From the NCBI GenBank assembly GCA_016188545.1, contig JACPHO010000001.1, positions 419,324 to 483,323 on the forward strand: a DNA stretch of 64,000 bases, in the 5' to 3' direction. Every line of letters begins with the position of its first letter. Positions within the stretch are counted from its first letter, which is position 1. Both the position numbers and the translations under genes were made by a program. Origin of the DNA: Candidatus Shapirobacteria bacterium (GTDB lineage Bacteria; Patescibacteriota; Microgenomatia; UBA12405). Below the pieces are notes generated by a model that made no database searches, was not told where the DNA came from, and saw only the letters and a program-made list of their open reading frames with translations. Shown piece by piece: positions 38,875-64,000 of this stretch.

Positions 38875-40151
38875 TTCTTTATGACTAAACCAATATCATT
38901 ACCGTATTTATAAGCTACAGTATCACGAATATTTTCTTTAGAAATCAAAGTCAGGTCTTTTGCTGGAAGCTGTGAATCCCAGTCTGAACTGAAATCGTTT
39001 TTAAACTTAGGTCCGACAAACTCACCTGCAAAACCTGCATATAGACCGTTATCGATATTACCTGTAGATAGATTGAAACTATTAAAAACAAACTTATCAG
39101 TTTTACATATATCTCCCAAATAAAACCAACAATAATTCTGGCTACTACCAATTAGCGTAGAGACATATATTTTTTCAAAATTTTCTACCCCCAGTGGTTT
39201 TATGCCCGTATACCAGTACTGATAAACTAGTGGCCGATTATCAAGCCAGAAATCAGCCCTCTTAGAAATGTCATAACTATTTACATAAGTTGCATAAAGC
39301 AATACCACCCCCACAACTGCTCCAACATACCTATTGGCAACTAATATTTTTTCAACCCCATATGCCATCAATAGTGACAAGGGTATCAGCAACAATATAA
39401 ATCTCTGATACAAAACAGTGTTTGAAAATAAAAAATCAATAAACGAAATCACCAACAAAACAACCAAAATATTGTTGGAATCATTTTTTAATTTTGAAGT
39501 AACCCAAAAATATATTCCAAATATCAAAATAAATATTTCCGGCCAATAAAATAAAACAACTGATTTTTGTTCCATTGGATGAACCTCCTGGAAATAAAGA
39601 GTTTCCAAATCAAAAAAAGGTAACAACTCAGCCAAAACCTGACGATAAGTTATAAAAAGTTTGTTATATCCAATTCTTCTCCACATAAGTGGCAATTCCA
39701 TTTTGATACGGAGCGTATCCTCAGACATAAATCTGTTATTTACTTCATTTCTAGCGTCGGACATAGTAATTTTCGACAAAATCGCCGGATTTTGTTTCAG
39801 AAAACTCACGTTATAAAAACCCAATCCCACCAATACTAGTAAAATAATCCACCACTTAGTTTTTAGGAATGTTACTACACATAGTACTAGTACCAACTTA
39901 ACTACCATCAGTGGATACGACCACCCGATCCCCCATACCGCCGGGGACATTACTAACAAAATGATCGAAATTACTGAACTTTTTACTGACGCAACTGTCC
40001 TTAACTTATTAAACCAAAACCAAAAAACAATTCCCATTAATAATATTGTCAGTATCCTCAACCACAAAAGACCAATTTCACTACCCGTTCCCGTCTTCAT
40101 CAAAATCCAAATTTGTTCTTCAGTTGGTGGATAATTAAACAGACTAATCAT
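38871..40151 (-). CDS. Polytopic membrane protein of unknown function
   Basis: 426 aa, multi-TM. ATGA-coupled to the upstream GT-C gene. Confidence 0.35.
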   Translation of the reverse strand: MISLFNYPPTEEQIWILMKTGTGSEIGLLWLRILTILLMGIVFWFWFNKLRTVASVKSSVISIILLVMSPAVWGIGWSYPLMVVKLVLVLCVVTFLKTKWWIILLVLVGLGFYNVSFLKQNPAILSKITMSDARNEVNNRFMSEDTLRIKMELPLMWRRIGYNKLFITYRQVLAELLPFFDLETLYFQEVHPMEQKSVVLFYWPEIFILIFGIYFWVTSKLKNDSNNILVVLLVISFIDFLFSNTVLYQRFILLLIPLSLLMAYGVEKILVANRYVGAVVGVVLLYATYVNSYDISKRADFWLDNRPLVYQYWYTGIKPLGVENFEKIYVSTLIGSSQNYCWFYLGDICKTDKFVFNSFNLSTGNIDNGLYAGFAGEFVGPKFKNDFSSDWDSQLPAKDLTLISKENIRDTVAYKYGNDIGLVIKK

Positions 40152-48094: not shown

Positions 48095-49001
48095 CACCCC
48101 ACTTTCCATTGCCATTGCCACATATAATGAATCAGCCAATATCGGTCGTTGTCTAAAAAGCATCGAGGGGCTGGCAAGTGAAATCATAATTGTTGATGGA
48201 CAATCTACCGACGACACTGTGGCTATTGCCAAAAAATACCCGTCTATTAAGGTCATATCGACGACCAACAAACCAAACTTTCACATCAATAAACAGATGG
48301 CCATTGATGAGTGTAAAAACGATTGGGTACTTCTACTCGACGCTGACGAAGCAGTCTCAAAAGAACTTTTTGCAGAAATAAAAAAACTTCTAACCCTCAG
48401 TACCGAAAAAATTGTAGAAGAGTCTAATGCTGTTTTACAATCCCATCCTTTATTTTTACGACATCAACAAATACTTCAGGACAGAGACGGTGAATATGGC
48501 TCTAAGTCAAACGAATACACGGCATTTTTTGTTCCTCGACTAAACTATTTTCTAGGAAGGTTTATCCGCTACGGAGGTGTCTATCCCGATGGCCAAATCC
48601 GACTTTTTAGAAAAAGTGTTAGTCATCAACCAGCTAAGGACGTCCATGAACAAATTCATACTGACGGTCGTGTCGGTTGGTTAAGTTCTGACCTACTCCA
48701 TTTTGCCGACCCCACCTTTTCTAGGTATCTTTTAAGAAATAGTCGCTATACCTCAAATATAGCCACTGAGTTACAAGAAAAGAAACTCCCCATCTCTTTT
48801 ATTTCGTTTTTAAATTATTTTATGGTTAAACCAATTTGGTGGTTTGTACTTACCTACTTTCGACACAAAGGGATCCTTGATGGTTTTTCCGGTTTTGTCT
48901 TCTCCTGGTATTCATCACTCCGTTTCCCGATTGCCTATATAAAATATTTTGAACTCACATCCACCAACCAAAAAATAACTGTTGGCAAGGACTGGGATTA
49001 A
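48084..49001 (+). CDS. Glycosyltransferase family 2
   Basis: LSIAIATYNESANIGRCLKSI...IIVDGQSTDDT...LLLDADE. Confidence 0.72.
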   Translation: MKNNTPLSIAIATYNESANIGRCLKSIEGLASEIIIVDGQSTDDTVAIAKKYPSIKVISTTNKPNFHINKQMAIDECKNDWVLLLDADEAVSKELFAEIKKLLTLSTEKIVEESNAVLQSHPLFLRHQQILQDRDGEYGSKSNEYTAFFVPRLNYFLGRFIRYGGVYPDGQIRLFRKSVSHQPAKDVHEQIHTDGRVGWLSSDLLHFADPTFSRYLLRNSRYTSNIATELQEKKLPISFISFLNYFMVKPIWWFVLTYFRHKGILDGFSGFVFSWYSSLRFPIAYIKYFELTSTNQKITVGKDWD

Positions 49002-49002
49002 C

Positions 49003-50157
49003 ATGAGTAAAATTTTTAGGATCGCTATCGATGTTTCACCTTTAAATGACGGCAACTCCAAAAGGGGGGTGGGTTTTTATACTCGCAACCTGGTTAGCTC
49101 TCTCAAAGAAGAAATTAAATTAAACCCCTTATATAAAAACTTCGAAATTGTTCTAATTGAAAATTGTAAATTCCTGCCTGCCGGCAGGCAGGGTAAAATT
49201 AAAAATTATGACCTGGTTCATTATCCCTATTTTGATCCGTTCTATCTCACTCTCCCCACCAAAAAAGATATCCCTCAAATAATCACCATTCATGACCTAA
49301 TACCCATCCAATTCAAGCAACATTTTCCCTCCGGCATAAGAGGGTTCCTTAAGTGGCAAATTCAAAAACATAAAGCTAAGCAGTCAGATTACATCATTAC
49401 AGTTTCAAATTATTCCAAATATGTCATCGCTGAAAGTCTAGGATTTGCTGCAGATAAAATATACGTGACTTACGAGGGAGCCACCCCTGATTTTAAGAAG
49501 ATCATAGATCACAAAAAGTTATCTCAAATCAAAAAAAAATATAAATTACCTGAAGAGTTTGTTTTTTACACTGGCGATATAAATTGGAATAAAAACATTC
49601 CCTCATTAGTTAAAGCATGCATCGACCTAAACTACCCATTGGTTATCGCCGGTAAACAGGCAATCGATATCGACAATCTCAAACTTGAAAAACCAAGTAT
49701 AGCTAGACCCATGGACTTATTTAGACACTTGTTAGATATTCCCAGTCCTCAGTTAAAACATTTAACAACCCTAAAAAAAATATTTCATAGTCCGCTGGTT
49801 TATAGATTAGGGTTTGTTGATAGTGAAGATTTACCTTTTCTATATAACTTAGCTACAATTTACTGCCAACCTTCATATGCAGAAGGCTTTGGACTTTGCC
49901 CACTGGAAGCTATGCAGTCCGGCACTCCAGTTGTTTACAGTTCTGATACCAGTCTCCCTGAGATCATGGGTGAAGCTGGTATATCATTTAATCCGTATAG
50001 TACTGATGGTCTGATCAGTTCACTCAAAAAACTCTGGATTGACAAAACCTTACAAGACCAACAAATTAAAATGGGTATTAATCGCTCCAAGTTTTTCTCC
50101 TGGAAACAAACAGCCAAGCAAACCTTAGCAGTTTATGACTTAGCTCTCAGTCGATGA
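49003..50157 (+). CDS. Glycosyltransferase family 4 (GT-B)
   Basis: EGFGLCPLEAMQSGTPVV motif. Start taken at the ATG at 49003, just after the upstream stop. Confidence 0.72.
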   Translation: MSKIFRIAIDVSPLNDGNSKRGVGFYTRNLVSSLKEEIKLNPLYKNFEIVLIENCKFLPAGRQGKIKNYDLVHYPYFDPFYLTLPTKKDIPQIITIHDLIPIQFKQHFPSGIRGFLKWQIQKHKAKQSDYIITVSNYSKYVIAESLGFAADKIYVTYEGATPDFKKIIDHKKLSQIKKKYKLPEEFVFYTGDINWNKNIPSLVKACIDLNYPLVIAGKQAIDIDNLKLEKPSIARPMDLFRHLLDIPSPQLKHLTTLKKIFHSPLVYRLGFVDSEDLPFLYNLATIYCQPSYAEGFGLCPLEAMQSGTPVVYSSDTSLPEIMGEAGISFNPYSTDGLISSLKKLWIDKTLQDQQIKMGINRSKFFSWKQTAKQTLAVYDLALSR

Positions 50158-50966
50158 AAAGCCAACTGCATTTTTTATCAGTAATTGTTCCGGTTTATAA
50201 ACAAGAAACTACCATCAGGAAAGACCTAACCACTATTCTCCGGACACTAGAACAGATTCGCTATCCTTTTGAGCTTATCGCTGTTATTGATGGCAAAAGT
50301 ATCGACAACTCATTCAAGATTGCCAGTTCTATCCATCACCCCAACCTAAAAGTCACCGGCTACAACCAGAACCACGGCAAAGGCTATGCTATCCGATATG
50401 GTTGGGCTCATACACACGGAGACTATGTCGCCTTTATCGACTCCGGTATGGAGATCGATCCAAACGGAATTTCTATGCTTCTTGAACACATGGAGTGGTA
50501 TGAAGCAGATATTGTAGTCGGCAGTAAATTTCATCCCGCCTCCCAAATAGCGTATCCATTCCATCGACGAATTATTAGTTTTGGTGCCCACCTAATCTCG
50601 CTTTTTCTTCTCCGCATCAACCTCCACGACACCCAGGCTGGAATCAAAATCTTCAAACAACAAGTGCTCAACAAAATACTCCCCAGGCTTTTAATCAAAA
50701 CTTTTGCCTTCGACCTGGAAGTGTTAGCTGTTTCTAAACATCTGGGTTTTACCCGAATCTACGAAGCACCTATCAAACTAAACTATGATTTTTCCGGAAC
50801 CCATCTTGATGGTTCTTTCCTAAAAACAGTCATGCTTTGTCTCAAAGATGCCCTAGCAGTCTTCTATCGACTATACATTATTCACTACTATGATGACAAA
50901 AACAGACGAAAGTGGGTTTACGACAAAGACTTAGAAATGAGAATCAACACCGGTGAATATGAATAA
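50154..50966 (+). CDS. GT2 polyprenyl-phosphate sugar synthase (DPM1/GtrB-like)
   Basis: LSVIVPVYKQE...VIDGKSIDNS...IDSGMEIDP...TQAGIKIFKQQV...FAFDLEVL. Confidence 0.72.
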   Translation: MKSQLHFLSVIVPVYKQETTIRKDLTTILRTLEQIRYPFELIAVIDGKSIDNSFKIASSIHHPNLKVTGYNQNHGKGYAIRYGWAHTHGDYVAFIDSGMEIDPNGISMLLEHMEWYEADIVVGSKFHPASQIAYPFHRRIISFGAHLISLFLLRINLHDTQAGIKIFKQQVLNKILPRLLIKTFAFDLEVLAVSKHLGFTRIYEAPIKLNYDFSGTHLDGSFLKTVMLCLKDALAVFYRLYIIHYYDDKNRRKWVYDKDLEMRINTGEYE

Positions 50967-51930
50967 ATCACCATTTTTTTCTATTATTATTCCAATACGA
51001 GTAGTTACCCCATATCTTCGGGAAACTATTGCCGCTCTCGAGCACCAAACTTTCAAGAATTTCGAATTGATTATTGTTGATGACAAAATGTCTGGAGTTG
51101 TCTCACCCGCAATCAAAAGGAATCTCGGCACCAAAAAGTCCCAAGGTTCTTACCTTGCTTTTATTGACGATGACTCCTATCCCGACCCAAATTGGTTAAA
51201 AAACATCCACCAGCAAATAAAAATCCATCCTGCCTACGCTGCTTACTGTGGTCCATGTCTAACCCCACCTGAAGATGATGTCTACCAAAAAGCATCTGGT
51301 TTAGTTTGGGCATCCTTTTTGGGCAGTGGGGGAGCCGGTGTCTATCGCAATACAATTAGTAAATCACAAGAAGTCGACGATTTTCCTTCAGTCAATCTAA
51401 TTGTCAAAAAAGCCGACTTCAACTTAGTCCACGGGTTCAATACTCACCACTGGCCAGGAGAAGATACTATTCTTTGCTTAGATCTAACCAAAAAATTACA
51501 TAAGGTCATCTACTATCACCCCTCAATCATTGTTTATCACCATCGTCGGCAAGTCATTATTCCACACCTCCAACAAATAACCAGATATGCCCTCCATCGT
51601 GGTAATTTTGCCCGAATCTACCCTGAGACAAGTTTTCGATTAGGGTATCTTACACCTAGTTTTTTTGCCGTCTATTGCCTACTAATCCCACTTTTCATAA
51701 ACAAACTATTCTACTTTACCTGGCCACTATATCTATATCTGGCTCTACTTTTCGTTACATTAGTAAAGTTCATTGCACAAAGAAACAATATCTACTCGTC
51801 AGCTTTAGCCGCCATCACCATTCCCATCACTCATCTCTATTATGGTTTATTATTTATTTGGGGTTTCTTTTCAGTAAAGTTATTATTCAAACCCCACCGT
51901 CTTTCTCAAGATCAATACCACGGAGGTTGA
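50953..51930 (+). CDS. Glycosyltransferase family 2 with C-terminal membrane anchor
   Basis: FSIIIPIRVVTPYLRETIAALEHQ...FIDDDS, followed by ~3 C-terminal TM helices. Confidence 0.68.
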   Translation: MNMNKSPFFSIIIPIRVVTPYLRETIAALEHQTFKNFELIIVDDKMSGVVSPAIKRNLGTKKSQGSYLAFIDDDSYPDPNWLKNIHQQIKIHPAYAAYCGPCLTPPEDDVYQKASGLVWASFLGSGGAGVYRNTISKSQEVDDFPSVNLIVKKADFNLVHGFNTHHWPGEDTILCLDLTKKLHKVIYYHPSIIVYHHRRQVIIPHLQQITRYALHRGNFARIYPETSFRLGYLTPSFFAVYCLLIPLFINKLFYFTWPLYLYLALLFVTLVKFIAQRNNIYSSALAAITIPITHLYYGLLFIWGFFSVKLLFKPHRLSQDQYHGG

Positions 51931-51961: not shown

Positions 51962-53476
51962 ATGAAACATCCTTTCTCCATCGCCATTTCTTACCCACCA
52001 CTGGAGAGTTCAAAAGGAATTCCATTTTTAGCTCAAAACAGACAATTTCAGTGGACAAATACGGGCAATGTAATCCTGCCGGTTATCCCCGCATACGGAG
52101 CCTCCGCCTTACATCAATTAGGTTACAAAGTCTATTGGGACGACGCCATTGCTGAAAAAATTTCTTATCAAAAATGGTTAAGCCGCATTATCAAGTGGCG
52201 CCCGTCTCTAGTAGCCATCGAATCAAAAACTCCCACAATTAAGCGTCATTGGGCTATTATCAAAGATCTAAAATCTGCCGCTGCTAAGGACAAAAAGTGG
52301 AAACTAAAAGTAGTTCTTTTTGGTGATCACGTCACTGCTATGCCTGAAGAATCACTCAAAAACTCTCCCGTCGACTATGTCATTACTGGTGGCGACTATG
52401 ACTTCATGTTACTCAACCTAGTTGATCACTTAGTCAACAGCACCAAACTTGAACCCGGCTTCTACTATCGCTCTAACGCTCTAAAGTTCAAAAGTACTAT
52501 TATAAATACTGGTAAATTTGCCCTAAAACATCACAACCTAGATACACTTCCACCAATCAACCGGGAACTAACCAATTGGAAACTATACGGTAACGACAAC
52601 ACCAATTTTAAATATCATCCCGGCGCCTATCTCATGACCGGACGCGACTGTTGGTGGGGAAAATGCACTTTTTGTTCTTGGATCAGCATCTTCCCTGGCA
52701 ACAACTTTCGAAACTTCTCGGTCAAACACACGGTCGACGAAATCGAGTACATGGCTTCTCTTGGTATTCGTGAAATTTTTGATGACGCCGGCACACTCCC
52801 CATTGGCCCCTGGCTTCGAGACTTTTGCAACGAGATGATTAAAAGAGGACTCCACAAAAAGGTTGTTATAGGTTGTAATATGCGCTTTGGTGCCCTCAAC
52901 CAAGAACAATATGATCTGATGGGTAAAGCCGGATTCCGGTTTATCCTCTACGGTCTAGAATCCAGCAACCAAAAGACCCTCGATATGATTGTCAAAAATA
53001 CCAAAGTTGAAGACTCTCGCAAAACCCTAATCATGGCCAAAAAAGCTGGACTAGAACCCCACCTAACAATTATGATTGGCTACCCTTGGGAAACCAAAGA
53101 AGATGCCCAAAACACTCTAGAGGAAGCCCGTAGCTTATTCCGTGATGGTTTAGCCGACAGTATGCAGGCAACTATCGTTGTCCCATATCCTGGCACCCCT
53201 TTGTTCAAACAGTGTCAAGAAAACAATTGGCTAAAAACCGAAGATTGGGACGCCTACGACATGCGTCATCCTATTATGAAGTCACCCCTATCAGACAGTG
53301 AACAGCTTGAGCTTGTCCAGAGTCTCTTCCATGGTATTCTCACCCCACGTTTTCTAATTCGAAAAGTCCTCTCCATCCGCTCGCTTGACGACATTAAACA
53401 TCTTTTTACCTATGCCATCAAATACCTCAAAAAACTCCGCGATTTCCCCATCGCTTCCAAGCCAGCTACTCACTAA
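51962..53476 (+). CDS. B12-binding domain radical SAM protein (class B-like), non-canonical Cx4Cx2C cluster motif
   Basis: N-terminal Rossmann-like cobalamin-binding region, then TGRDCWWGKCTFCSW. C-terminal region is typical of B12-rSAM enzymes. Confidence 0.68.
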   Translation: MKHPFSIAISYPPLESSKGIPFLAQNRQFQWTNTGNVILPVIPAYGASALHQLGYKVYWDDAIAEKISYQKWLSRIIKWRPSLVAIESKTPTIKRHWAIIKDLKSAAAKDKKWKLKVVLFGDHVTAMPEESLKNSPVDYVITGGDYDFMLLNLVDHLVNSTKLEPGFYYRSNALKFKSTIINTGKFALKHHNLDTLPPINRELTNWKLYGNDNTNFKYHPGAYLMTGRDCWWGKCTFCSWISIFPGNNFRNFSVKHTVDEIEYMASLGIREIFDDAGTLPIGPWLRDFCNEMIKRGLHKKVVIGCNMRFGALNQEQYDLMGKAGFRFILYGLESSNQKTLDMIVKNTKVEDSRKTLIMAKKAGLEPHLTIMIGYPWETKEDAQNTLEEARSLFRDGLADSMQATIVVPYPGTPLFKQCQENNWLKTEDWDAYDMRHPIMKSPLSDSEQLELVQSLFHGILTPRFLIRKVLSIRSLDDIKHLFTYAIKYLKKLRDFPIASKPATH

Positions 53477-54182
53477 ATATCGCATCTACGGGTTTTACTG
53501 GACAATCAAATTAACCTTTCAGTTTTTGTATCGTAAACTATTTTTCGAACTACTTCGCCAATCTCACTCTCAATATGGCGAAGACTTGATTATCAGCGAA
53601 ATATTGAAAACCAAAGATATTTTTTATGTTGATATCGGAGCCAACCATCCTAAGAAATTCAACAATACCTATTTTTTCTATCGACACGGTAGTCATGGCA
53701 TAAACATTGAACCAAATCCATATTTGTTGCAACAATATTCAACCGTTCGCTCAGGCGACACCAATCTAAACATAGGCATATCTTCAAAACCAAGTGTCAT
53801 GAAATTCTATCAAATGTACCCCGATGTCAACTCCACTTTTTCAAAAAGTAAATATCTCCACAATCTTCAACACAATTCTTTGCTTGTTGATACGCCCAGT
53901 ATAGAAGTAACAACTCTATCACTGTTATTCGACAGTTATCTACCGCAAAGACAAACCATCGACTTATTATCAATCGATACCGAAGGCCACGATCTAACCG
54001 TTCTCAAAAGTAACAACTGGCAAAAATATTGTCCTAGACTAATTTGTGTTGAGACTCAGTCAGACCACTCATTACATAGTTATCTGCTAAAATTAGGCTA
54101 CAAACAAGTCCACAAGACCCCAATTAATAGCCTATATGTCCAAAAAAGTTATTCTCTTTTTTCCCTCCCCACTTCCCTATGA
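53385..54182 (+). CDS. FkbM-family SAM-dependent methyltransferase (overlaps the upstream gene end; true start uncertain)
   Basis: YVDIGANHPKKFNNTYFF...GINIEPNP matches the FkbM domain. The ORF overlaps 51962..53476 by ~90 nt, so the start may be a non-ATG codon further downstream. Confidence 0.6.
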   Translation: MTTLNIFLPMPSNTSKNSAISPSLPSQLLTKYRIYGFYWTIKLTFQFLYRKLFFELLRQSHSQYGEDLIISEILKTKDIFYVDIGANHPKKFNNTYFFYRHGSHGINIEPNPYLLQQYSTVRSGDTNLNIGISSKPSVMKFYQMYPDVNSTFSKSKYLHNLQHNSLLVDTPSIEVTTLSLLFDSYLPQRQTIDLLSIDTEGHDLTVLKSNNWQKYCPRLICVETQSDHSLHSYLLKLGYKQVHKTPINSLYVQKSYSLFSLPTSL

Positions 54183-55671
54183 AAGAAACTGGCACGGTGT
54201 ACCGCTTGCGCTGTTGGCCATATCCCGCTATCTAGTCAACGAAAATTACGATATTAAGATTTACACCCGTTACCTTCAAAAAAACTACGAACGGAAGCTC
54301 CTAAAATCTGGCAAAAATGCTATTTGTTTGGGAATTAGTGCCATGACTGGACATCAAATATACGACGGGTTGAGACTCGCCAAAAAATTTAAAAAAAAAT
54401 ACCCCAAAGTACCAATTGTTTGGGGTGGCTGGCACCCTTCAATTTTACCCCTTGAGACAATCAAAGACCATCGGGTCGATATTGTAGTCAAAGGACAGGG
54501 TGATATTACCTTCACCGAACTTGTACATGCTCTGGAATCCAAATCAGATCTAAAAAATGTAAAAGGAATTGTCTTCAAGAAAGGTAAAAAAATAATTGCC
54601 ACTCCAGACCGGAGACCAGTCGACCTTACCACGGTGCCGCCCCTTCCCTATCATCTTGTCGATGTTTCCCAGTGCACCATCCCGACTGAGTACGGTCTGC
54701 GAACCGCCCCCTACATTAGCAGTTATGGATGTCCTCATCGTTGTGCGTTTTGTGTCGAAGAGATCGTCAACAAACGTAGCTGGAAAGCCGTTCCTGCCGA
54801 AAAAGTCCTGAATGAATGGGAAGGTTTGTATCGCAATTATGGTGCCGATTCTATTGCTGTCTATGACAGCAACTTTTTTGTAGATGAAAACCGAGTCCGA
54901 GAGATTTGCGAAGGACTAATCCACCGCAATTTACCAATAAAATTTGGTAATGCCAACGGTCGGGCTGGTCAACTAAGTCGCTACAAACCAGAGACTTGGG
55001 AGCTCATGGAAAAGGCCGGGTGCACTATGATTCTCACTGGAGCTGAGTCAGGTGATCAAAAATCTCTCGACTTTATTAGTAAAGACATGAATGTAGAAGA
55101 GATCGTCAAGTTCACAGAACTATGTCACAAGCACAATATTAAAATCCTCTATTCATTTTTGGTTGGACTTCCTTGGTCAAAAGATCCCCAAGAAAATGAT
55201 GAGTTTGTGGCCACAGAGTACCGATCCACTCTTTCCCTTATCGACAGGTTGTTAAAAATATGTAATCGTAACCGGTATACTTATTACGTGTTTTTACCCT
55301 ATCCTGGCGCTGCTTTATACAACCGTGCCGTCGGTCTTGGACTAGAGGCTCCTAAAAGTTTTGAAGATTGGACCAACTACCTTATGTCCCCCGAAAATGC
55401 CTTCAAAGAAACCATTCGTCAACAGTGGATTAGTCCCCATGATGCAAGACTAACCGCAATGTTAACCCAATATATTTTTGGAATAATGGATCGTGACACC
55501 TACACCATGCTATACCCTAGACTTAAAAATCCTATTTCAAGAGCAGCCTTCACATCCGGATATTATATTGCTCTTGCCATGGTGACAGTTCGCTGGAAAC
55601 TCAAGTTTTTTGACTTCCCGTTAGATTATTGGCTGTTTTCTCTTGTACATCGCTATGGCGGCATCCTCTAA
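54136..55671 (+). CDS. B12-binding domain radical SAM protein (canonical CxxxCxxC)
   Basis: Cobalamin-binding-like N-domain (ISAMTGHQ...VWGGWHPS) and SSYGCPHRCAFCVEE. A9 tract at 54391-54399. Confidence 0.75.
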   Translation: MSKKVILFFPSPLPYERNWHGVPLALLAISRYLVNENYDIKIYTRYLQKNYERKLLKSGKNAICLGISAMTGHQIYDGLRLAKKFKKKYPKVPIVWGGWHPSILPLETIKDHRVDIVVKGQGDITFTELVHALESKSDLKNVKGIVFKKGKKIIATPDRRPVDLTTVPPLPYHLVDVSQCTIPTEYGLRTAPYISSYGCPHRCAFCVEEIVNKRSWKAVPAEKVLNEWEGLYRNYGADSIAVYDSNFFVDENRVREICEGLIHRNLPIKFGNANGRAGQLSRYKPETWELMEKAGCTMILTGAESGDQKSLDFISKDMNVEEIVKFTELCHKHNIKILYSFLVGLPWSKDPQENDEFVATEYRSTLSLIDRLLKICNRNRYTYYVFLPYPGAALYNRAVGLGLEAPKSFEDWTNYLMSPENAFKETIRQQWISPHDARLTAMLTQYIFGIMDRDTYTMLYPRLKNPISRAAFTSGYYIALAMVTVRWKLKFFDFPLDYWLFSLVHRYGGIL

Positions 55672-56686
55672 AACACCTTCTATTTCTTTCATCATTCCCA
55701 CCCTAAATTCTGGTGCAGTTTTGATTGATTGTCTTCAGTCAATTGTCGATCAAAAATATCCAAAAGATAAAATAACTATTTTAATAGTTGACGGCGGCTC
55801 ATCTGATTCCACACTTAAGATTGCCAAATTATATCGTACAATAATCATCAATAACCATCTAAAAACAGCGGAATCAGCCAAGTCATTAGGCATCAAGAAA
55901 TCAACAACAGACTTCATCGCCTTAATCGACTCGGATAATATTCTTCCCACCCCAACTTGGCTTGAATCAATGCTCTTACCCCTAACAACAGACCCCGCCA
56001 TTATTGGCTCAGAACCATGGAGCTACACTTATCGACCGGAAGGTGGATTTATAGAGCGATACAGTGCCCTTACTGGGGTCAACGACCCCTACACTTTAGT
56101 CGTCGGAAACTATGATCGTCAAAATGTCCTCACCGGCAAGTGGACCGGACTAAAACTAAATATCGTCGATCATCAATATTACCAAGCAATCCGGTTTAAA
56201 AGTAACTCATCACTTCCCACTATTGGTGCCAACGGCACTATTTACAAAACCATCATCGCTCAACAATATCTAAGCGGTGATTACTTTTTTGATATCGATT
56301 TCTTGTCCACAATTCTATCCAAAAAAAAATCACTTGAGTTTGCCAAGGTCAAGGTTGGAATTATCCACACCTACTGTGAGTCATCAATATCCAAATTTTA
56401 CAAAAAACAGTTACGTCGGGCAGTCGACTTGTATACCCACCAAAACGATCGAACCTACCCCCTAACCAAAAACAATTTCCTCCCCACAGTCATTTTCTGT
56501 CTTTACGTGGTTACCTTGCTTCCCATGACCATCGATACACTCAGAGGCTTTGTAATCAAGCCCGACATTGCTTGGTTCTTTCACCCACTGGCATGTGTTA
56601 TAACTCTATTCACTTACGGCACAACTACCATAAAGTATAAACTTGGTTCACTCAAGCCTCTTGATCGTAAACAATGGCATCAATAA
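55643..56686 (+). CDS. Glycosyltransferase family 2
   Basis: ISFIIPTLNSGAVLIDCLQSIVDQ...VDGGSSDST...LIDSDN. Confidence 0.7.
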   Translation: MYIAMAASSKTPSISFIIPTLNSGAVLIDCLQSIVDQKYPKDKITILIVDGGSSDSTLKIAKLYRTIIINNHLKTAESAKSLGIKKSTTDFIALIDSDNILPTPTWLESMLLPLTTDPAIIGSEPWSYTYRPEGGFIERYSALTGVNDPYTLVVGNYDRQNVLTGKWTGLKLNIVDHQYYQAIRFKSNSSLPTIGANGTIYKTIIAQQYLSGDYFFDIDFLSTILSKKKSLEFAKVKVGIIHTYCESSISKFYKKQLRRAVDLYTHQNDRTYPLTKNNFLPTVIFCLYVVTLLPMTIDTLRGFVIKPDIAWFFHPLACVITLFTYGTTTIKYKLGSLKPLDRKQWHQ

Positions 56687-57792
56687 AAACTATCCTCCAC
56701 ATCACTCCATTTTTCCACCCCAATATTGGAGGGGTCGAAACTCATCTAGACGACCTTACCTATGAACTACACAAAAGGGGATACAAACAGATTGTTCTTA
56801 CTTATTCACCACTATCAACCATTGTTCCCTATCAAAAATCAGAGTTGTCGACCAACTTACTCATTCATCGTTTTTACCTACCTGGTCACAATTTATTTCA
56901 TTCTCTCGAAAAATTTCCTCTATTAAATTTTTTATACATCACCCCTTGTTTACTTTTTCACTCCCTTATTTGGCTTTTGGTCAATCACCCTCACATCGAC
57001 ACCATCCATTCTCACGGTCTAAACTCCGCTCTAATCGGCAATATTATAAAAAAATTCCTGAGAATTCCCAAACATATCACCTCTATCTACTCTACCTATG
57101 ACAATGTTCCCTTAAATTCAACTACTACAAAATTATTTGTCCACATTCTCAACAATACCGACAAAGTTCTTACTCAGTCAGACCAATCAGTTATACAACT
57201 CAGAAATTTAGGAGTTATCAAAAATAAAATCGCCAGATATTATCATTGGATTGATATTACACGCTTTAAACCAATTCCAAAAAAATCATCCAAATTTTCT
57301 GTATTATTTATCGGTCGTCTAATTCCTCAAAAAAACTCCATAACTCTTGCCACATTAGCCCCAGAATTTACTCAGATAAGATTTGATTTTATCGGTACCG
57401 GTCCTGAATTAGAAAATCTCAAAACTTTAGCCAAAAAATATTCCAATATAAATTTAATTGGCGATGTTCCTTATAAAAACTTGCCACAGTTTTATCAACA
57501 AGCAACTGTTTTTTGTATGCCCTCTACCTATCACGAAGGCTGGGGTAGGGTACTTGCCGAATCAGTTGCCTGTGGCACCCCCGTGATTTGTTCAAACTTA
57601 GGCGGCACCACTGAAGCCGTCGACAGTTCTGTAGCAATTATAGTACCTCCCACTTCAGATCATTTCAAAAAATCCATCAAAAAACTATTTGAAAATCCGT
57701 CCCAACTCCGAAAACTTAGATACAATTGCCATACATACGCCAAAAAACACTATTCCTCAGATAATGTTACTTACATCACCCGACACTATTAA
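56674..57792 (+). CDS. Glycosyltransferase family 4 (GT-B)
   Basis: EGWGRVLAESVACGTPVI motif. N-terminal HITPFFHPNIGGVETH. Confidence 0.72.
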   Translation: MASIKTILHITPFFHPNIGGVETHLDDLTYELHKRGYKQIVLTYSPLSTIVPYQKSELSTNLLIHRFYLPGHNLFHSLEKFPLLNFLYITPCLLFHSLIWLLVNHPHIDTIHSHGLNSALIGNIIKKFLRIPKHITSIYSTYDNVPLNSTTTKLFVHILNNTDKVLTQSDQSVIQLRNLGVIKNKIARYYHWIDITRFKPIPKKSSKFSVLFIGRLIPQKNSITLATLAPEFTQIRFDFIGTGPELENLKTLAKKYSNINLIGDVPYKNLPQFYQQATVFCMPSTYHEGWGRVLAESVACGTPVICSNLGGTTEAVDSSVAIIVPPTSDHFKKSIKKLFENPSQLRKLRYNCHTYAKKHYSSDNVTYITRHY

Positions 57793-58412
57793 ACTTTGCT
57801 TGCCTCAATATACAAACCCAGCTCTTGGTGAATCGGTAAGTCAAGAATATCAACATCCTTCATCGAGCTTTTTCTGTATGCCGAATTTTTTATTTTAGTA
57901 AACCCAACTTTATTAATCAGTCGACTAAGGTTTTCAAAATCATACATCCATTGGTGACCTCTGATTGCCGATTTACCAAGACCCATGTTTTTGTCTTTAT
58001 CAAATCCATAAAACTCTCTACAAAAAACATCCGCGTCACCATTTTTTAAGTATTTATCCATTATCTTTTTTAGGTCTGGGACAACCAAACGAATTTTTCC
58101 ATTTTGTTTCAGTACCCGCAAACACTCTTTTAAGAGTTCCTCGGCTTCATATTTTTCAAGATGCTCTAAAAAATTTGAACTATAAATCCAATCAACACTA
58201 TTTGCCATTAAAGGAATTCCTTTTCGAAGATCATGTAATACTACTTCCCTCCAATCTCTTTGATAACTCTTGTCAAGAATACCCAACGACACCAATAATC
58301 TTCGTAATAGTGGAATCTTAGCCAAAAATGGCAACCATCCCCAGTCATAGTTAATCCACCCCTGTACCCCGTCTGGCCCCGAACCCAAGTTAATTCTCAC
58401 TTCCCCTTTCAT
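57789..58412 (-). CDS. Class I SAM-dependent methyltransferase (Methyltransf_11/23-like)
   Basis: LKQNGKIRLVVPD and an overall ~200 aa Rossmann-fold MT pattern. Confidence 0.55.
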   Translation of the reverse strand: MKGEVRINLGSGPDGVQGWINYDWGWLPFLAKIPLLRRLLVSLGILDKSYQRDWREVVLHDLRKGIPLMANSVDWIYSSNFLEHLEKYEAEELLKECLRVLKQNGKIRLVVPDLKKIMDKYLKNGDADVFCREFYGFDKDKNMGLGKSAIRGHQWMYDFENLSRLINKVGFTKIKNSAYRKSSMKDVDILDLPIHQELGLYIEASKV

Positions 58413-58431
58413 AGCTATATAATATCAGAGT

Positions 58432-59625
58432 ATGTCTCTTCCCAAGCTTCTCGTAGTCTGCCACACCAATTTGGGTACCAGCCTCAGCGGAGGAGACAGG
58501 ATTTTTCTAAAACTTATCAAATATTGGCAAAAGTATTTTGAAATAACCGCCCTAGCATCCCCAGAAGCCAAAAAACTTATTCAAAGAAATAAGTTGAATA
58601 TACATATCATCAGTACTACCCATGTCCCAACAATCACTAATTTATCGACTTTCCACTTAGTCCTACACCATACCATTAGATTCCTGACCGCGATTACTTT
58701 CTGTCTTACTCACCCTCCTCTTTTCCAAAAACACACCCACGTCTACACATCTTCTGATTTTTACGGTGACTTTACTTTCGGATTCTTATCCAAATTATTT
58801 AATGGCAAAATTACTTGGTATTGTGGTTACTATCTTTTAGCCCCATTTCCAACAGATACCAATTCTCCTTACCTCACCAACCACCATCCAATTCGTGGAC
58901 TTATCTACTACTTAGCCCAAAGACCAACCATTCTACTTGCTCGACTATTAGCAGATTATGTATTTGTCACTTCCAAACCAGATATTGTCCCATTTAAAAA
59001 TAACCGGTTACCTTCATCAAAAATTATTATCGTCCAGGGCGGTGTCTACATCCCTACCAGCAAAACTATCAAAACACTTCTACCCATTACCAAGAGGGCA
59101 TATGACGGATTTTACCTTGGTCGTCTCCACAACCAGAAAGGTGTTATGGAAATGATCGATATCTGGTCTTTAGTTACCAAAAAAATACCCGCAGCTCGTT
59201 TAGTCATCGTCGGTGACGGAGAGTTAATGTCCCAAATGACCCAGAAAATTGATGCATTAAAACTTCAAAAAAATATTAATGTCATCGGTTTTTTGGTTGG
59301 TCCCAAAAAATTTGCTCTCATCAAAAATAGTAAAATAGTTCTTCACCCTGCCACCTATGACAGTGGGGGAATGGCCGCAGCAGAAGCCATGGCATGGGGA
59401 CTTCCTGGTGTCTCTTTTGACCTCCCATCGCTAAAGACATACTATCCCAAAGGCATGGTCAAAGTACCACTTTCAGATCTAAACAAGTTTGCCAACTTAG
59501 TCGTCAAACTTTTGACAAATAAAGAGTTCTACAAAAAACATTCCCACGACGCCCGGGATCTAACTATTGAAAATTGGAACTGGAAAACCCGGTTTGACAA
59601 TATCTACAAAAAAATCTCAGTGTAA
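58432..59625 (+). CDS. Glycosyltransferase family 4 (GT-B)
   Basis: GGMAAAEAMAWGLPGV motif. GRLHNQKG. Confidence 0.7.
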   Translation: MSLPKLLVVCHTNLGTSLSGGDRIFLKLIKYWQKYFEITALASPEAKKLIQRNKLNIHIISTTHVPTITNLSTFHLVLHHTIRFLTAITFCLTHPPLFQKHTHVYTSSDFYGDFTFGFLSKLFNGKITWYCGYYLLAPFPTDTNSPYLTNHHPIRGLIYYLAQRPTILLARLLADYVFVTSKPDIVPFKNNRLPSSKIIIVQGGVYIPTSKTIKTLLPITKRAYDGFYLGRLHNQKGVMEMIDIWSLVTKKIPAARLVIVGDGELMSQMTQKIDALKLQKNINVIGFLVGPKKFALIKNSKIVLHPATYDSGGMAAAEAMAWGLPGVSFDLPSLKTYYPKGMVKVPLSDLNKFANLVVKLLTNKEFYKKHSHDARDLTIENWNWKTRFDNIYKKISV

Positions 59626-59710
59626 ATACACAGACTTAAAGATTATTTATCTAAAACGCTTATCTCTTACGCTCTAACGTTCTAATGATCTAAAGTTCTA
59701 TCTCGTTCTA

Positions 59711-61159
59711 CTATGCTGTCATCGCCCGATAATACGCTTTCCCAAATGCAATTAGCTTTACCCCAAACGAGTTCCAACCATCTCGCCGAACAATCTCCAT
59801 AACCGTCTCTGCCACCCCCCTTCTTCTGACTCTAGTCTTTAAATAAAGCCAAGCAGCTTTTGGCAAGTTACTCTCAATATCTCGTTTCTTGTAGTCAGGG
59901 TATTCATAGACAGCTGTATTCCCATTGTATTTTCTCCAATCATCGGTCAACAGATTTCCCCGACTCTTCAATAAGTTATAAAAAGGTGTCCCTGGCTGAG
60001 GTGTGCACACCGATGCCTGAAAATCCCACAGCAGCCCTTCTTTTGTTAATTTCTCTATCAAATCCAATGTCTTCCCATCCTCTGTCAGGTTCGAATCAGG
60101 AGAACCAAATGTAAATGTTGCATACATTCTCATCCCCACTTTCTTAGCCATCTTAAGAACTTCAATAATTCGGTCAACATTCACATTTTTTACCATTCCT
60201 AGGGCCGTCTTTACCGATGCTGTCTCAATCCCAATTCTAATTTTGTAATAACCAGCCTTTCTCATCATGGTCAGCATTTCCTCATCGAAAGTCCAATACC
60301 CACACATGGCATCATACTTTAGATCCTGCAATCCATTATCAATTATGGCTTGACACAGTTCCATGACAAACTTTTTGTTCGAATTATGATTTTCTTCATC
60401 AAAGAAAATCCCATCCATTTCCGGATATTTATTCTTAAGATATTTAATTTCATCGATTACATTTTGAACTTCTCGGACTCTAAAATTTGGTTTGCCATAA
60501 TAAGTTTGTCGAGCTACACAAAAGTTACAATTCATCGGACACCCACGGGTTGCAAAGAACTCAATTTCCTTATAGTCACAACCGCCAATTCGGGTATAGT
60601 TCATCCGACTGATATCATCGTCCTCAGGAAAGGGGAGTGTGTGTACATCTAAAAGTTCCTTTACTGGGTTAGGATAAATTCCGTCAATTGTTTTCGGCTT
60701 TTCACCACTAACCAGCTTGACTACAGCCGGTTCGTATTCCCCAGTTGCCACGTAGTCGACACCATCAGCCAACACTTCTTTTGGAAAAGCAGTCGGATGT
60801 TGACCACAAAAAATAATTTTTGTACCGTACTTTTCCTTAAACTTAAGAGCAAATCTAAGATCGTATTTATAGACAACCGATGATGTTTCAACCACCAGAT
60901 AATCAGGCATAAACTTTTTATACTTCTCAAAATATTCCTCGGCTGTTAGTTCTTCATAATTCCCATCTACCATTTTCACTTCCAAGTCTTTGTTTTGCTT
61001 TAACATCGATGACAGATATCCTAGCTCGTATGGATAAAAGTTAAACGATTTGGTTTTTCCAACACAAGTCGACCATCGAGAAGGAAATAAAATGTAATGA
61101 TTTCCATCATCATCTTTACCTACAGAGTTCGCTATCAACACTTTTGTCCTGGATTTCAT
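59711..61159 (-). CDS. B12-binding domain radical SAM protein (canonical CxxxCxxC)
   Basis: ATRGCPMNCNFCVAR. N-terminal cobalamin-binding-like domain. 482 aa. Confidence 0.75.
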   Translation of the reverse strand: MKSRTKVLIANSVGKDDDGNHYILFPSRWSTCVGKTKSFNFYPYELGYLSSMLKQNKDLEVKMVDGNYEELTAEEYFEKYKKFMPDYLVVETSSVVYKYDLRFALKFKEKYGTKIIFCGQHPTAFPKEVLADGVDYVATGEYEPAVVKLVSGEKPKTIDGIYPNPVKELLDVHTLPFPEDDDISRMNYTRIGGCDYKEIEFFATRGCPMNCNFCVARQTYYGKPNFRVREVQNVIDEIKYLKNKYPEMDGIFFDEENHNSNKKFVMELCQAIIDNGLQDLKYDAMCGYWTFDEEMLTMMRKAGYYKIRIGIETASVKTALGMVKNVNVDRIIEVLKMAKKVGMRMYATFTFGSPDSNLTEDGKTLDLIEKLTKEGLLWDFQASVCTPQPGTPFYNLLKSRGNLLTDDWRKYNGNTAVYEYPDYKKRDIESNLPKAAWLYLKTRVRRRGVAETVMEIVRRDGWNSFGVKLIAFGKAYYRAMTA

Positions 61160-61161
61160 TG

Positions 61162-62004
61162 TTAAATCTTACCACTTTTTCCCTCAACCTCAACTACTCC
61201 ATGTTGAGCCACTAAGACCGAAAAGATCCAAAGTATTGGGATAGTTATAGTTTGAAATACAATCATTGTTGGAATAGTTAGTTTAAACCCAAACTTCGAC
61301 AATATTGAGTAGCCCATCACCTGACGATATTCACCAAAATAATTTCTGCTCTTAATATCTTTAAAACCTACATCTTCAAACATCTTGAGTAGACCCGCTT
61401 CACTAAACAAAGTCTGATGATTCGGATAATCCAAATGGTACCAATTAGCACCCGCCAATTTTGCCTCCCACGACTCAACATTTGGCACCCTGACAACTAG
61501 TCTACCCGTAGGTGATAATATCCCTAAAATTTTTCTAATATATTCTGCTGGTTTTTCGATATGTTCCAAAACATGATACATCACCACCAACTCAAACTTT
61601 TCTTTAACTTTATCAATATCGTCAAACAGATGATCTTTTCCTAAGACGTTTTCTATTTGCCTCCTGGCATACTTTGACTTTTCTACACCAAAGACCCGAT
61701 ATCCCATAGATTTAAGAGCTTTTAAAAATTTACCTTCACCAAAACCAATTTCTAAAACCTTATCATTTTTTGACAAACTAAGAGTTTGATATCTATCCCA
61801 AAATGCGAATTTGTCAACAATATTCATTAGCCATCCACTTTTACTCCTACCATAATATTCCTTATCATAGACACTTTTCACCACACCGCTCATCGACACA
61901 CTTCTACACTGTAAGCACTCCACAAAACTTGAATCTATCTTCCACTGACGAGTATTATCTGACTCACATACCAGACATTTTCTTTGCTTCTTTTGTGTAG
62001 CCAT
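61162..62004 (-). CDS. Class I SAM-dependent methyltransferase with N-terminal CxxC-x14-CxxC zinc ribbon
   Basis: CLVCESDNTRQWKIDSSFVECLQC, followed by VLEIGFGEGKFLKAL (SAM-binding motif I). Start chosen at MATQKK; the ORF-track start at 62022 is an alternative. Confidence 0.6.
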   Translation of the reverse strand: MATQKKQRKCLVCESDNTRQWKIDSSFVECLQCRSVSMSGVVKSVYDKEYYGRSKSGWLMNIVDKFAFWDRYQTLSLSKNDKVLEIGFGEGKFLKALKSMGYRVFGVEKSKYARRQIENVLGKDHLFDDIDKVKEKFELVVMYHVLEHIEKPAEYIRKILGILSPTGRLVVRVPNVESWEAKLAGANWYHLDYPNHQTLFSEAGLLKMFEDVGFKDIKSRNYFGEYRQVMGYSILSKFGFKLTIPTMIVFQTITIPILWIFSVLVAQHGVVEVEGKSGKI

Positions 62005-62845
62005 CTGATTTCCACTTAACAACTAACCACTGCATAATTATGTTCGGATAATTGTCAGTTGTTTTAACTATCCACTCCATTATATTTCGAATACGATTCA
62101 TTATTCGCCATTCCAATATCAAGATAATAAATCTACCCAATTTATTTTTAATTAAAAAAGGTAAAAAATTCACCGGCAATTTAGATTTTAAATAATATAA
62201 ACCACGTCCGTGACTAATAAATCTGTTTTTAATATCCTCAAATTTTAATTGATGGAAATGCCAAACTTTAGCGTTGCTATCAAAATATAATTTTAGACCA
62301 TTTATTTTGGCACGATAGGCAAACTCAATATCTTCCCACGCTGCTGTCGGAAATTCTTCACAAAACCACAATTCATTTTTTATTACAAAATTTCTCTTCA
62401 TTGAAAAGTTGCACGTCCACAAATAATACCAAGGTATTCTTCGAATTTTATCGGTATATTTAAATCGATAATTAAAATGTAGCCCACTTTGTCCCACCAA
62501 CCATTTCATCGCATTTATTTTGATTGTCTCAGGGTGATTTTCTGTCAATCCTACCATCCCCGCCGATTCTGATTTATGCCTACTATGAAAATCTAAGTGG
62601 GATTTTATAAACCCAATTTCTATAAAACTATCATCATTTAAAAACAGTAAATATTTTCCCCTTGACCTTTTTATCGCTTCATTTCTAGCCTTTGCGGGTC
62701 CATTATTACCAATTACTATTACGATTTCGTCACGATCTTTGTCAATCTGTGCTTCTAAAAGTGCCAGGGCCTCTTTTAATATCTCTTGTCGCTTAAGTGT
62801 CGGGATAATAATACTAAACCTTACTCTCCTCTGGCTACTTTCCAT
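61964..62845 (-). CDS. Glycosyltransferase family 2
   Basis: FSIIIPTLKRQEILKEALALLEAQ...FLNDDS. Confidence 0.68.
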   Translation of the reverse strand: MESSQRRVRFSIIIPTLKRQEILKEALALLEAQIDKDRDEIVIVIGNNGPAKARNEAIKRSRGKYLLFLNDDSFIEIGFIKSHLDFHSRHKSESAGMVGLTENHPETIKINAMKWLVGQSGLHFNYRFKYTDKIRRIPWYYLWTCNFSMKRNFVIKNELWFCEEFPTAAWEDIEFAYRAKINGLKLYFDSNAKVWHFHQLKFEDIKNRFISHGRGLYYLKSKLPVNFLPFLIKNKLGRFIILILEWRIMNRIRNIMEWIVKTTDNYPNIIMQWLVVKWKSDGYTKEAKKMSGM

Positions 62846-64000
62846 ATCTTTAGAATTATTTTTATGACTATCACTACCGGTGCCGAAATAATCGGTGATT
62901 GCTTCATTATAAACGCCGTGCCCAGTAACATTTTTCGAAGTACTATCATGTCAAAAGAGGATAGATACTTAGTCCTCATGTTACTAATATTTCCATTAAA
63001 TTTATTCCAATCAAAATCTTGAATTAGTCCCGACTTCATGGCATCAGCAAACATTTCCGTCCCAGGGTATGGAGTAATTGTGCTGAACCCTACCGATTCT
63101 GGGTTGAGTCTAACCAAATAATCAAATGTGTTTGACATTGTCTTCAAATTATCATCAGGCAACCCGATTATCATCAAAAAGTGAAGTTTCACTCCAACTT
63201 TTTTGGCAACTTCTCGAATATTTTGAATCGATTCCAAAGTCACTCCCGGCTTACCTTGGTAGATAATCAATTCTTGGTCAAGAGTCTCTATCCCCACATT
63301 AATCCCCAAACACCCAGCCTTTTTCATTATTTTTAAAAGCTCTGGAGTTAATACATTTATCCGTGTCTCACACCACCACCTAATCTTCAGTTTATTTTTT
63401 ATTATCAAGTTACAGAGTTCCTCAGTTCTTTTATTATCCAGAGTAAAAGTTGCATCACGAAATAGCACACTTTTAATTCCCAGTTTACTAATTACTTTTA
63501 ACTCTTTAATTACCCGTTCATTACTCATAGCTCTCCAAGTCTTTCCCTGGACTAGGGGATAAGGACAGTAAAATCCACATGGGTAGGGGCAGCCTCGACT
63601 TGTCTGCATAGTCGTCACCACCCCAGGAAGTAGTACATAGCGATACCGGTCAATTTTGGTTTCCTCTCGAGCTGATAGTGGCAGATCATCGAGATTTTTA
63701 ATCCTATCCTCCACAGTCATTGGCGACAGCCCAACTTTTTCATTATTCCAGTAGACACAGCCCGTTCTTCTTTTTCCACTCAAAAATTCTTCGATGGTTA
63801 AGTCACATTCACCAAAAATTATTAACTCAGCCCCAGAATCCTTAAGCACCCTTTCCAATATTTGTTTATAGTTTATCCCGGTCTTAAAAATTACCCGAAG
63901 ACCTGGGATATTTTCCATCAACTTTCTAGCAAATTCTGTATCTTCCGACACGGTTGGTAATGCCAAACCTGAGATTACAACTTCAATCTTTTTGTTTTTT
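62821..64000 (-). CDS. B12-binding domain radical SAM protein, non-canonical Cx3Cx3C spacing; N-terminus runs off the window
   Basis: TSRGCPYPCGFYCPYP ~125 aa into the visible ORF. The upstream residues look like a partial B12-binding domain, so the true start is probably beyond 64000. Confidence 0.6.
   Translation of the reverse strand, partial: KNKKIEVVISGLALPTVSEDTEFARKLMENIPGLRVIFKTGINYKQILERVLKDSGAELIIFGECDLTIEEFLSGKRRTGCVYWNNEKVGLSPMTVEDRIKNLDDLPLSAREETKIDRYRYVLLPGVVTTMQTSRGCPYPCGFYCPYPLVQGKTWRAMSNERVIKELKVISKLGIKSVLFRDATFTLDNKRTEELCNLIIKNKLKIRWWCETRINVLTPELLKIMKKAGCLGINVGIETLDQELIIYQGKPGVTLESIQNIREVAKKVGVKLHFLMIIGLPDDNLKTMSNTFDYLVRLNPESVGFSTITPYPGTEMFADAMKSGLIQDFDWNKFNGNISNMRTKYLSSFDMIVLRKMLLGTAFIMKQSPIISAPVVIVIKIILKIWKVARGE

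Follow-up and report, generated by a model that had tools for sequence, protein, structure and literature searches.

Four radical S-adenosylmethionine (SAM) genes, here called R1 to R4, lie in a 64,000-nucleotide stretch of DNA (hereafter the window) from Candidatus Shapirobacteria, a member of the Microgenomates within the candidate phyla radiation (contig JACPHO010000001.1, positions 419,324 to 483,323 of the forward strand). They occupy the distal region of the window, which is part of a glycan locus of ~50 kb. R1 and R2 match NCBI proteins of Candidatus Shapirobacteria at 100% identity, encoded on a contig of 563,806 bp. On balance, and with moderate confidence, we read them as members of four subfamilies of glycosyltransferase-coupled radical sugar-tailoring enzymes, in which R4 is an AprD4-like dehydratase and R2 the sole plausible cobalamin enzyme. 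The evidence from the locus suggests sugar deoxygenation or rearrangement more than vitamin B12-dependent methylation of sugars. This reading builds on the identity of the genes, the conservation of their motifs, homology, synteny and natural gene fusions; what the enzymes act on, which kinds of reaction they catalyse and in what order are predicted from these. All four proteins have a common architecture, a Rossmann-like N-terminal domain and a radical SAM barrel, and each enzyme would most likely modify the sugar that its partner glycosyltransferase installs or is about to use; the functional tie between the two kinds of enzyme is drawn from their conserved adjacency and from the fusions. 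A search of the literature returned nothing specific on these families in glycan loci, on radical SAM enzymes in glycan loci of the candidate phyla radiation, or on cobalamin in Patescibacteria.

Each of the four genes scored above the gathering score of the Pfam model Radical_SAM (PF04055; 51–60 bits against 29.5), at the positions given in a preliminary description of this DNA, whose reading of the cysteine motifs of R1, R2, R3 and R4 was exact to the letter (Table 1). Multiple alignment revealed downstream core motifs common to all four proteins, namely a GGE-equivalent D-x-x on β2, G-x-E-S/T on β4, G-x-P on β5, and PYPGT. The three-cysteine [4Fe-4S] motif is kept in 119/120 members of the R1 family, 120/120 of the R2 family, 144/150 R3 relatives and 119/120 members of the R4 family. 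The two odd spacings are conserved as such: Cx4Cx2C was found in 119 of the 120 best homologues of R1, and also in 78 of 79 relatives translated from genome loci, while Cx3Cx3C is present in 119 of the 120 best homologues of R4. Misreading or sequencing error as their source was therefore rejected. Nor are these spacings novel, as both are known family hallmarks; AprD4 reads CPYPCRFYC, and Cx4Cx2C is the published spacing of OxsB (PMC9204698) and GenD1 (PMC4340712). Among themselves the four proteins share just 24–27% identity (blastp), as old, distant paralogues do, and a recent tandem duplication was rejected on this ground. Modification of a peptide, ribosomally synthesized or other, was rejected as well, since the surrounding genes all belong to glycan assembly; no screen of small open reading frames (ORFs) for peptide precursors was part of this judgement.

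The assignment to profile models that the preliminary description had called for was carried out against NCBIfam. R1 and R3 scored best against HpnJ, R2 against BchE and R4 against AprD4, all below cut-off. The R4 frame runs on past its first listed start to nt 64000 without a stop, and the gene is cut by the end of the window; as full-length homologues measure ~464 aa, ~72 N-terminal residues lie beyond it. The AprD4 model (NF033070) gave 225.6 bits for the R4 fragment and 254.6 and 262.7 bits for the full-length orthologues P0001 and P0073, ahead of the next-best model, HpnJ (160–189 bits), by ~65 bits for the fragment and ~90 bits for a full-length orthologue. Neither R4 nor its orthologues reached the equivalog cut-off of 500 bits, and R4 is therefore a homologue of AprD4 rather than an equivalog. 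P0001, which is 94% identical to R4, matched PDB 6fd2 in a full-length alignment at E = 4e-55 (5.5e-50 for the R4 fragment), with SRGCPYPCGFYCPYPL opposite SFGCPYPCRFYCPYPL.

R4 resembles AprD4 in its Cx3Cx3C motif with near-identical flanks (GCPYPCxFYCPYPL, with CPYPCGFYC aligned to CPYPCRFYC), in the common blocks FRD, WWCETRI and ITPYPGTE, and in a similar length of ~460 aa. It differs in its setting, as it stands beside a glycosyltransferase of family 2 (GT2) in a locus for envelope glycans of uncultivated bacteria and not in an aminoglycoside antibiotic cluster, and in retaining, as judged by eye, a G-E dipeptide at α5 that is absent from AprD4. In 2017 AprD4 was described as the sole dehydratase then known among radical SAM enzymes, and the pathway from which it is known is that of an antibiotic only. 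It is a radical 1,2-diol dehydratase which, with the NADPH-dependent reductase AprD3, deoxygenates C3′ of paromamine (PMC5461906, PMC7941887), and it binds no cobalamin (PMC12931638).

The surroundings of R4 were compared between 41 metagenomic loci with orthologues (at least 38% identity) and 30 loci with distant homologues only (25–38%). A short-chain dehydrogenase/reductase (SDR) stood directly adjacent to the R4 homologue in 21/41 orthologous loci against 1/30 distant ones, and within two genes of it in 26/41 against 2/30. A paralogue of GT2e, the GT2 next to R4 in the window, lay within two genes in 30/41 orthologous loci and in none of the 30 distant ones. Representative R4-adjacent SDRs belong to the NAD-dependent epimerase/dehydratase family of Pfam (PF01370). 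The frequent NAD(P)-dependent SDR beside R4 orthologues recalls the pairing of AprD4 with AprD3, as a likeness of gene position. In a syntenic Microgenomates locus (L001) and in a closer one of ~78% nucleotide identity (L083), a GT-C/TPR protein and an SDR are encoded just upstream of R4, in L083 together with a CofD/YvcK-like protein; farther upstream both carry Wzm/Wzt-like ABC transporter genes, and L083 has Gmd and Fcl too. In the window genome this gene set probably lies beyond nt 64000.

By this comparison R4 would be a cobalamin-independent 1,2-diol dehydratase of the AprD4 family, and it probably deoxygenates a sugar. The 5′-deoxyadenosyl radical would abstract a hydrogen from a sugar carbinol, the vicinal hydroxyl would be eliminated as water, and the keto-deoxy sugar so formed would be reduced by the adjacent NAD(P)H-dependent SDR, the net result being deoxygenation of a glycoside as by AprD4/AprD3. 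As to the SDRs themselves, three of those adjacent to R4 orthologues (L083 4404-5303, L085 8415-9353 and L097 9353-10354) had their best NCBIfam match in HpnA, a hopanoid-associated sugar epimerase (63–119 bits, cut-off 368). Several R4-adjacent SDRs have, by eye, a hydrophobic C-terminal tail, hinting at membrane association.

R1 belongs to a highly conserved family. The homologue search gave more than 6,000 matches, the top 120 clusters all being at least 65% identical, and with one genome scanned per species relatives were present in at least 567 species. R1-bearing taxa include the candidate phyla radiation, Elusimicrobia, Deltaproteobacteria, Nitrospinae, Latescibacteria, Chloroflexi, Brocadiaceae, Bathyarchaeia and Methanoperedens, and the relatives listed across these taxa are 50–57% identical over the full length. 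Mean column identity within the family is 70% (58 homologues of 65–94% identity). The gene immediately ahead of R1 in the window, GT2e2, is its constant companion. A GT2e2 homologue was directly adjacent to R1 in 28/29 close and 31/45 distant loci, in total 59/74 loci from bacterial phyla and archaea, and lay within two genes in 29/29 close and 40/45 distant loci (ORF-level neighbourhoods); in a separate tally it stood immediately upstream of R1 in 57/74 loci. Position −2 is usually held by a homologue of GT2p (33/63 loci) or by a Wzx-like flippase. At position +1 a GT2-cluster gene occurs in 36/74 loci, in most of them labelled as a homologue of the window gene at 55643..56686.

R1 and its membrane-anchored GT2 form an ancient, widely distributed module, and pairs of GT2 and radical SAM genes recur, as GT2e beside R4 is a paralogue of GT2e2 beside R1. 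The substrate of R1 is probably a glycoside linked to the membrane or to a lipid, and the reaction is more likely to be a radical rearrangement or dehydration than a methylation. Its Cx4Cx2C spacing is shared with OxsB and GenD1, precedents that act on sugars or nucleosides. The R1 profile reads RDCwwgkCTFC opposite RGCDYSRCTFC in OxsB, and its N-terminal Rossmann domain aligns weakly with that enzyme. However, Ser184 and Asn186 of OxsB stand opposite the invariant Glu87 and Lys89 of R1, the β1-α1 loop of R1 is far longer, and R1 is without the extra domains of OxsB. It is conceivable, if rather unlikely, that R1 and the membrane GT2 perform an ancient and unrecognised cobalamin-independent radical step, in which a membrane- or lipid-linked sugar would be rearranged or dehydrated before the envelope glycan is assembled. 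In nine non-Microgenomates loci (among L037-L082, for example L075 11563-12015) R1 is directly followed by a gene for a small membrane protein of ~150 aa with His/Asp-rich motifs.

For R3 the partners are found within the same polypeptide. An exhaustive search yielded 31,521 relatives at E ≤ 1e-3 and 383 at E ≤ 1e-30, and of the 150 best relatives 63 were at least 570 aa long. A Pfam scan covered 50 of the long relatives and detected a fused GT2 in 13/50, a fused GT1/GT4 in 5/50, a fused class I methyltransferase in 3/50 and a fused SPASM domain in 7/50. Examples at 39–45% identity are P0363 (radical SAM with GT4), P0368 (radical SAM with TPR and methyltransferase), and P0372 and P0375 (radical SAM with GT2). 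These fusions mirror the gene order GT4b-R3-MT23-GT2e-R4 of the window, where MT23 is a class I methyltransferase; in related loci, too, MT23 is found between the orthologues of GT2e and R3. As independent evidence, the natural fusions indicate that the R3 subfamily works with glycosyltransferases and SAM-dependent methyltransferases, and R3 would act together with partners of both kinds. The N-terminal domain of R3 matches the corresponding domain of TM0182 (PDB 4q37).

Two further observations concern the number of radical SAM modules. The R3 relatives P0389 and P0394 contain two such modules in tandem. At the level of the locus the gene number varies among relatives, since close relatives carry a fifth B12-binding/radical SAM gene of ~520 aa, placed between their orthologues of R3 and MT23 (12975-14537 in L001 and 10972-12540 in L083, both on the minus strand; L003 has it in the same place), and the window genome, in which R3 and MT23 are 3 nt apart, has none.

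The preliminary description had assigned a cobalamin-binding-like N-terminal domain to all four proteins. This stands at the level of the fold; the Pfam model B12-binding (PF02310, gathering score 32.1), however, reaches its gathering score for R2 only (41.1 bits), with 29.1 bits for R3, 25.8 for R1 and no match for R4. Class B enzymes contact cobalamin through GxS/TxX on β3-α3, Gly-Gly on β4 and Gly-Glu on α5, and their β1-α1 loop has 11–14 residues (PMC9204698). At these contact positions R2 reads GISAM, GG and GQGD, and its GG and GxG[DE] align to the GG and GE motifs of TokK, the best PDB sequence match of R2. Across the R2 family G[ILV]S.M is kept in at least 85/120, GGWH[PA] in 114/120 and GxG[DE] in 108/120 homologues. 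In the alignment with OxsB, R1 instead shows x-E87-x-K89, with GD for GG and GD for GE, while by eye R3 reads ETS, GQ and GE, and R4 GLA, TG and GE. The β1-α1 loop measures 15 aa in the AlphaFold2 model of R2 (predicted local distance difference test score 92.1) and 29 aa in the model of R1, compared with ~25 in AprD4 (alignment), 11 in TokK and TsrM and ~14 in OxsB; those of R3 and R4 are also long, as judged by eye from the alignment.

Fold searches placed AprD4, TsrM, CysS and MgmA within ~3–5 Z units for the R1 model and for the R2 model alike, and gave no separation of cobalamin binders from AprD4-like proteins. The R2 family is like the methylases of the TokK/TsrM/CysS type in its GG, GxSxM and GxG[DE] positions and its short β1-α1 loop; it differs in that identity in structural alignments with R2 is 14–18% and that R2 lacks the domains which TokK and CysS have at their C-terminus. 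Judged by these motifs, R2 is plausibly a corrinoid enzyme, the sole one of the four and so the sole candidate for C-methylation. R4 is very probably not a corrinoid enzyme, and we lean towards the same view for R1 and R3. Of the class B reading proposed earlier, the architecture, the glycan locus and the tie to glycosyltransferases were borne out, whereas cobalamin-type motifs are confined to R2.

Three other explanations were weighed. That all four proteins are cobalamin-dependent class B enzymes which C-methylate or alkylate surface-glycan sugars, with the FkbM and class I methyltransferases adding O-methylation, appears very improbable. All four have a class-B-like two-domain fold and the conserved GG, GxSxM and GxG[DE] of R2 align to TokK, yet R4 is homologous to a dehydratase with no cobalamin bound (PMC12931638). 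GenD1, which has Cx4Cx2C in common with R1, is together with GenK and MoeK5 a precedent for cobalamin-dependent C-methylation of sugars or lipid-linked sugars (PMC9204698, PMC4340712); in R1, however, invariant Glu and Lys replace the Ser and the lower-face residue of cobalamin binders, and the loop of 29 aa is AprD4-like. The C-methylated sugars predicted in the preliminary description found no specific support, as R4 groups with AprD4 and the best named families of R1, R2 and R3 are non-methylases. Rfam and tRNA scans detected no RNA family or tRNA in the window, hence no cobalamin riboswitch, and no cobalamin uptake gene was found in the 64 kb either. Candidate phyla radiation genomes lack corrinoid synthesis as far as we know, which we also count against four cobalamin enzymes. 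A mixed model, with R2 alone as a cobalamin-dependent sugar methylase and the other three cobalamin-independent, is possible although doubtful. It can draw on the Pfam score that only R2 attains, on the conserved R2 motifs and on TokK as best sequence match, and it would suit the accessory character of R2, which stands beside R1 in only some Microgenomates loci, as expected of a tailoring step, as well as the presence of the FkbM methyltransferase between R1 and R2 in the window. Yet sequence cannot tell methylases from non-methylase class B enzymes, and the best NCBIfam match of R2 is BchE, a cyclase (120 bits); moreover, the GE motif is changed to GQ or GP in most members of the R2 family, and a cobalamin source is not known.

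In the remaining alternative, R1 and possibly R3 would resemble HpnJ or calditol synthase (Cds) and convert a lipid-linked hexose placed by a GT2 into an ether-linked cyclitol, so that membrane lipid and not glycan would be tailored. We consider this improbable. The pairing of a membrane-acting GT2 with a radical SAM enzyme does mirror HpnI with HpnJ, as would a glycoside rather than a nucleotide sugar as target (proposed HpnJ and Cds chemistry, PMC13459092), the SDRs beside R4 orthologues score best against HpnA, and R1 is far more conserved and widespread, archaea included, than the usual variable glycan-tailoring enzyme. HpnJ (TIGR03471) is moreover the top NCBIfam match of R1 (134.1 bits) and R3 (143.4 bits), but the equivalog cut-off of 577.6 is far away and was reached by none of the four proteins (R2, 111.5 bits); because of these low scores, and because R4 outscores R1 and R3 on the same model with 159.7 bits, the similarity is generic. 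GT2e2 had no HpnI match in the NCBIfam scan, and together with the low HpnJ score this makes the analogy with HpnI/HpnJ and calditol synthase a lead and not a membership. Neither the window nor the related loci showed any hopanoid gene, no HpnK-like deacetylase was noticed nearby, and the neighbours are of the polysaccharide type, with flippase, GT-C and GT4. As a further difference from the HpnJ/HpnI system, we know of no hopanoid production in candidate phyla radiation bacteria.

Some points also weigh against the interpretation that we prefer, namely glycosyltransferase-coupled sugar-tailoring enzymes with an AprD4-like R4 and R2 as the one cobalamin candidate. The Pfam model B12-binding is matched by numerous R3 relatives and by some relatives of R1 and of R4, and these may use cobalamin. 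R4 and its orthologues score at about half the AprD4 equivalog cut-off (225–263 against 500 bits), and the substrate of R4, or even its chemistry, may therefore differ from that of AprD4. The SDR partner of R4 was seen in relatives (L001, L083) only, as its place in the window genome would be past nt 64000. Finally, the reactions proposed for R1 to R4, as members of their four subfamilies, are predictions from comparison.

The genes of the radical SAM block, which is syntenic in other Microgenomates, are listed in Table 1.

Table 1. Radical SAM genes, their cysteine motifs and neighbouring genes in the distal part of the window.
Feature	Position (nt)	Strand	Remarks
GT2p, soluble 270-aa GT2	50154..50966	+	Weak NCBIfam matches, all below cut-off: PpgS, AglJ, ArnC (polyprenyl-phosphate-sugar synthases)
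GT2e2, GT2 with hydrophobic C-terminal region	50953..51930	+	Conserved partner of R1; NCBIfam best MftF, EpsD
R1, 504-aa radical SAM protein	51962..53476	+	Invariant N-terminal QNRQFQW loop
R1 motif CWWGKCTFC	52649-52675		Cx4Cx2C
FkbM-family methyltransferase	53385..54182	+	PF05050 71.9 bits (cut-off 22.7); TIGR01444 42 bits (cut-off 37.7)
R2, 511-aa radical SAM protein	54136..55671	+	Canonical motif; Pfam B12-binding 41.1 bits
R2 motif CPHRCAFC	54730-54753		Cx3Cx2C
GT2, downstream of R1 or R2	55643..56686	+	Pfam Glycos_transf_2 73.7 bits
GT4a glycosyltransferase	56674..57792	+	Pfam Glycos_transf_1 112.3 bits; syntenic in Microgenomates loci
MT11, class I SAM methyltransferase	57789..58412	-	Partial Methyltransf_11 match, 33.9 bits; syntenic in many loci
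GT4b glycosyltransferase	58432..59625	+	Pfam Glycos_transf_1 78.5 bits
R3, 482-aa radical SAM protein	59711..61159	-	Canonical motif; Radical_SAM 57.6 bits
R3 motif CPMNCNFC	60518-60541		Cx3Cx2C
MT23, Methyltransf_23 class I methyltransferase	61162..62022	-	N-terminal Cys-rich segment; PF13489 85 bits
GT2e, paralogue of GT2e2 (blastp clustering)	61964..62845	-	NCBIfam best EpsD, below cut-off; conserved neighbour of R4
R4, AprD4-like radical SAM protein	62821..64000	-	Truncated by window end
R4 motif CPYPCGFYC	63565-63591		Cx3Cx3C

The three methyltransferases named in the preliminary description were recovered with Pfam profiles as FkbM, a partial Methyltransf_11 and Methyltransf_23. Few related loci have an FkbM homologue. 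As listed, the FkbM ORF (53385-54182) has TTG as start codon and overlaps both of its neighbours, the 3′ end of R1 by 92 nt and the start of R2 by 47 nt; its true start is uncertain, because the Pfam match covers the protein only from residue 83 onwards. GC content over R1, FkbM and R2 is 0.415–0.418, and 0.36–0.40 in the remaining locus. Ahead of GT2p, a GT4 at 48982-50157 gave a weak match (52.7 bits, cut-off 400) to TIGR04157 'glyco_rSAM_CFB', a glycosyltransferase family whose name refers to its association with radical SAM genes in Bacteroidota.

The first 13 kb of the window hold housekeeping genes (SecA C-terminus, BipA, RF-1, FtsEX, an M23 peptidase and an LCP protein), among which a Fic/DOC-domain protein is encoded at 783-1751, upstream of the glycan locus. 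From ~14 kb to the window end there is a single glycan locus, which takes up ~50 kb of the 564-kb contig and contains ten paralogous GT2 genes upstream of the radical SAM block, GT4s, a Wzx-like flippase and at least nine GT-C/PMT_2-like membrane proteins. The latter, an extreme expansion of membrane glycosyltransferases of ~480–560 aa between 14795 and 48094, form blastp clusters of seven and two, and a further pair matches the PTPS_related membrane domain only. The large ORFs 14795-16234, 23074-24759, 30920-33076, 36000-37220 and 38871-40151 of the glycan locus had no Pfam match at E ≤ 1e-3 or 1e-4. Together with 16249-17721, which was left out of the Pfam scan and is a paralogue of 14795-16234 on the opposite strand, they range from 406 to 718 aa. 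All 2-kb bins of the window from 1 to 64000 have a negative GC skew (cumulative −6.28), despite genes that are mostly on the plus strand.

The large orthologous group of R4, with the Cx3Cx3C motif of AprD4, occurs in envelope-glycan loci and is tied to SDR and GT2 genes, which suggests that radical sugar deoxygenation is widespread in cell-surface glycan biosynthesis. If R2 truly needs cobalamin, genome-reduced cells of the candidate phyla radiation would rely on host or community corrinoids to build their envelope. If the radical step proposed for R1 and its membrane GT2 is true, many uncultivated lineages would, by it together with the AprD4-like R4 and SDR modules, make deoxy or carbocyclic sugars through radical chemistry at the level of the glycoside, in contrast to the classical route via nucleotide-sugar dehydratases. 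The R1/GT2 pair and the fusions of R3 relatives with glycosyltransferases and methyltransferases are clonable pairs, and they offer a route to functions for thousands of unannotated 'B12-binding radical SAM' proteins.

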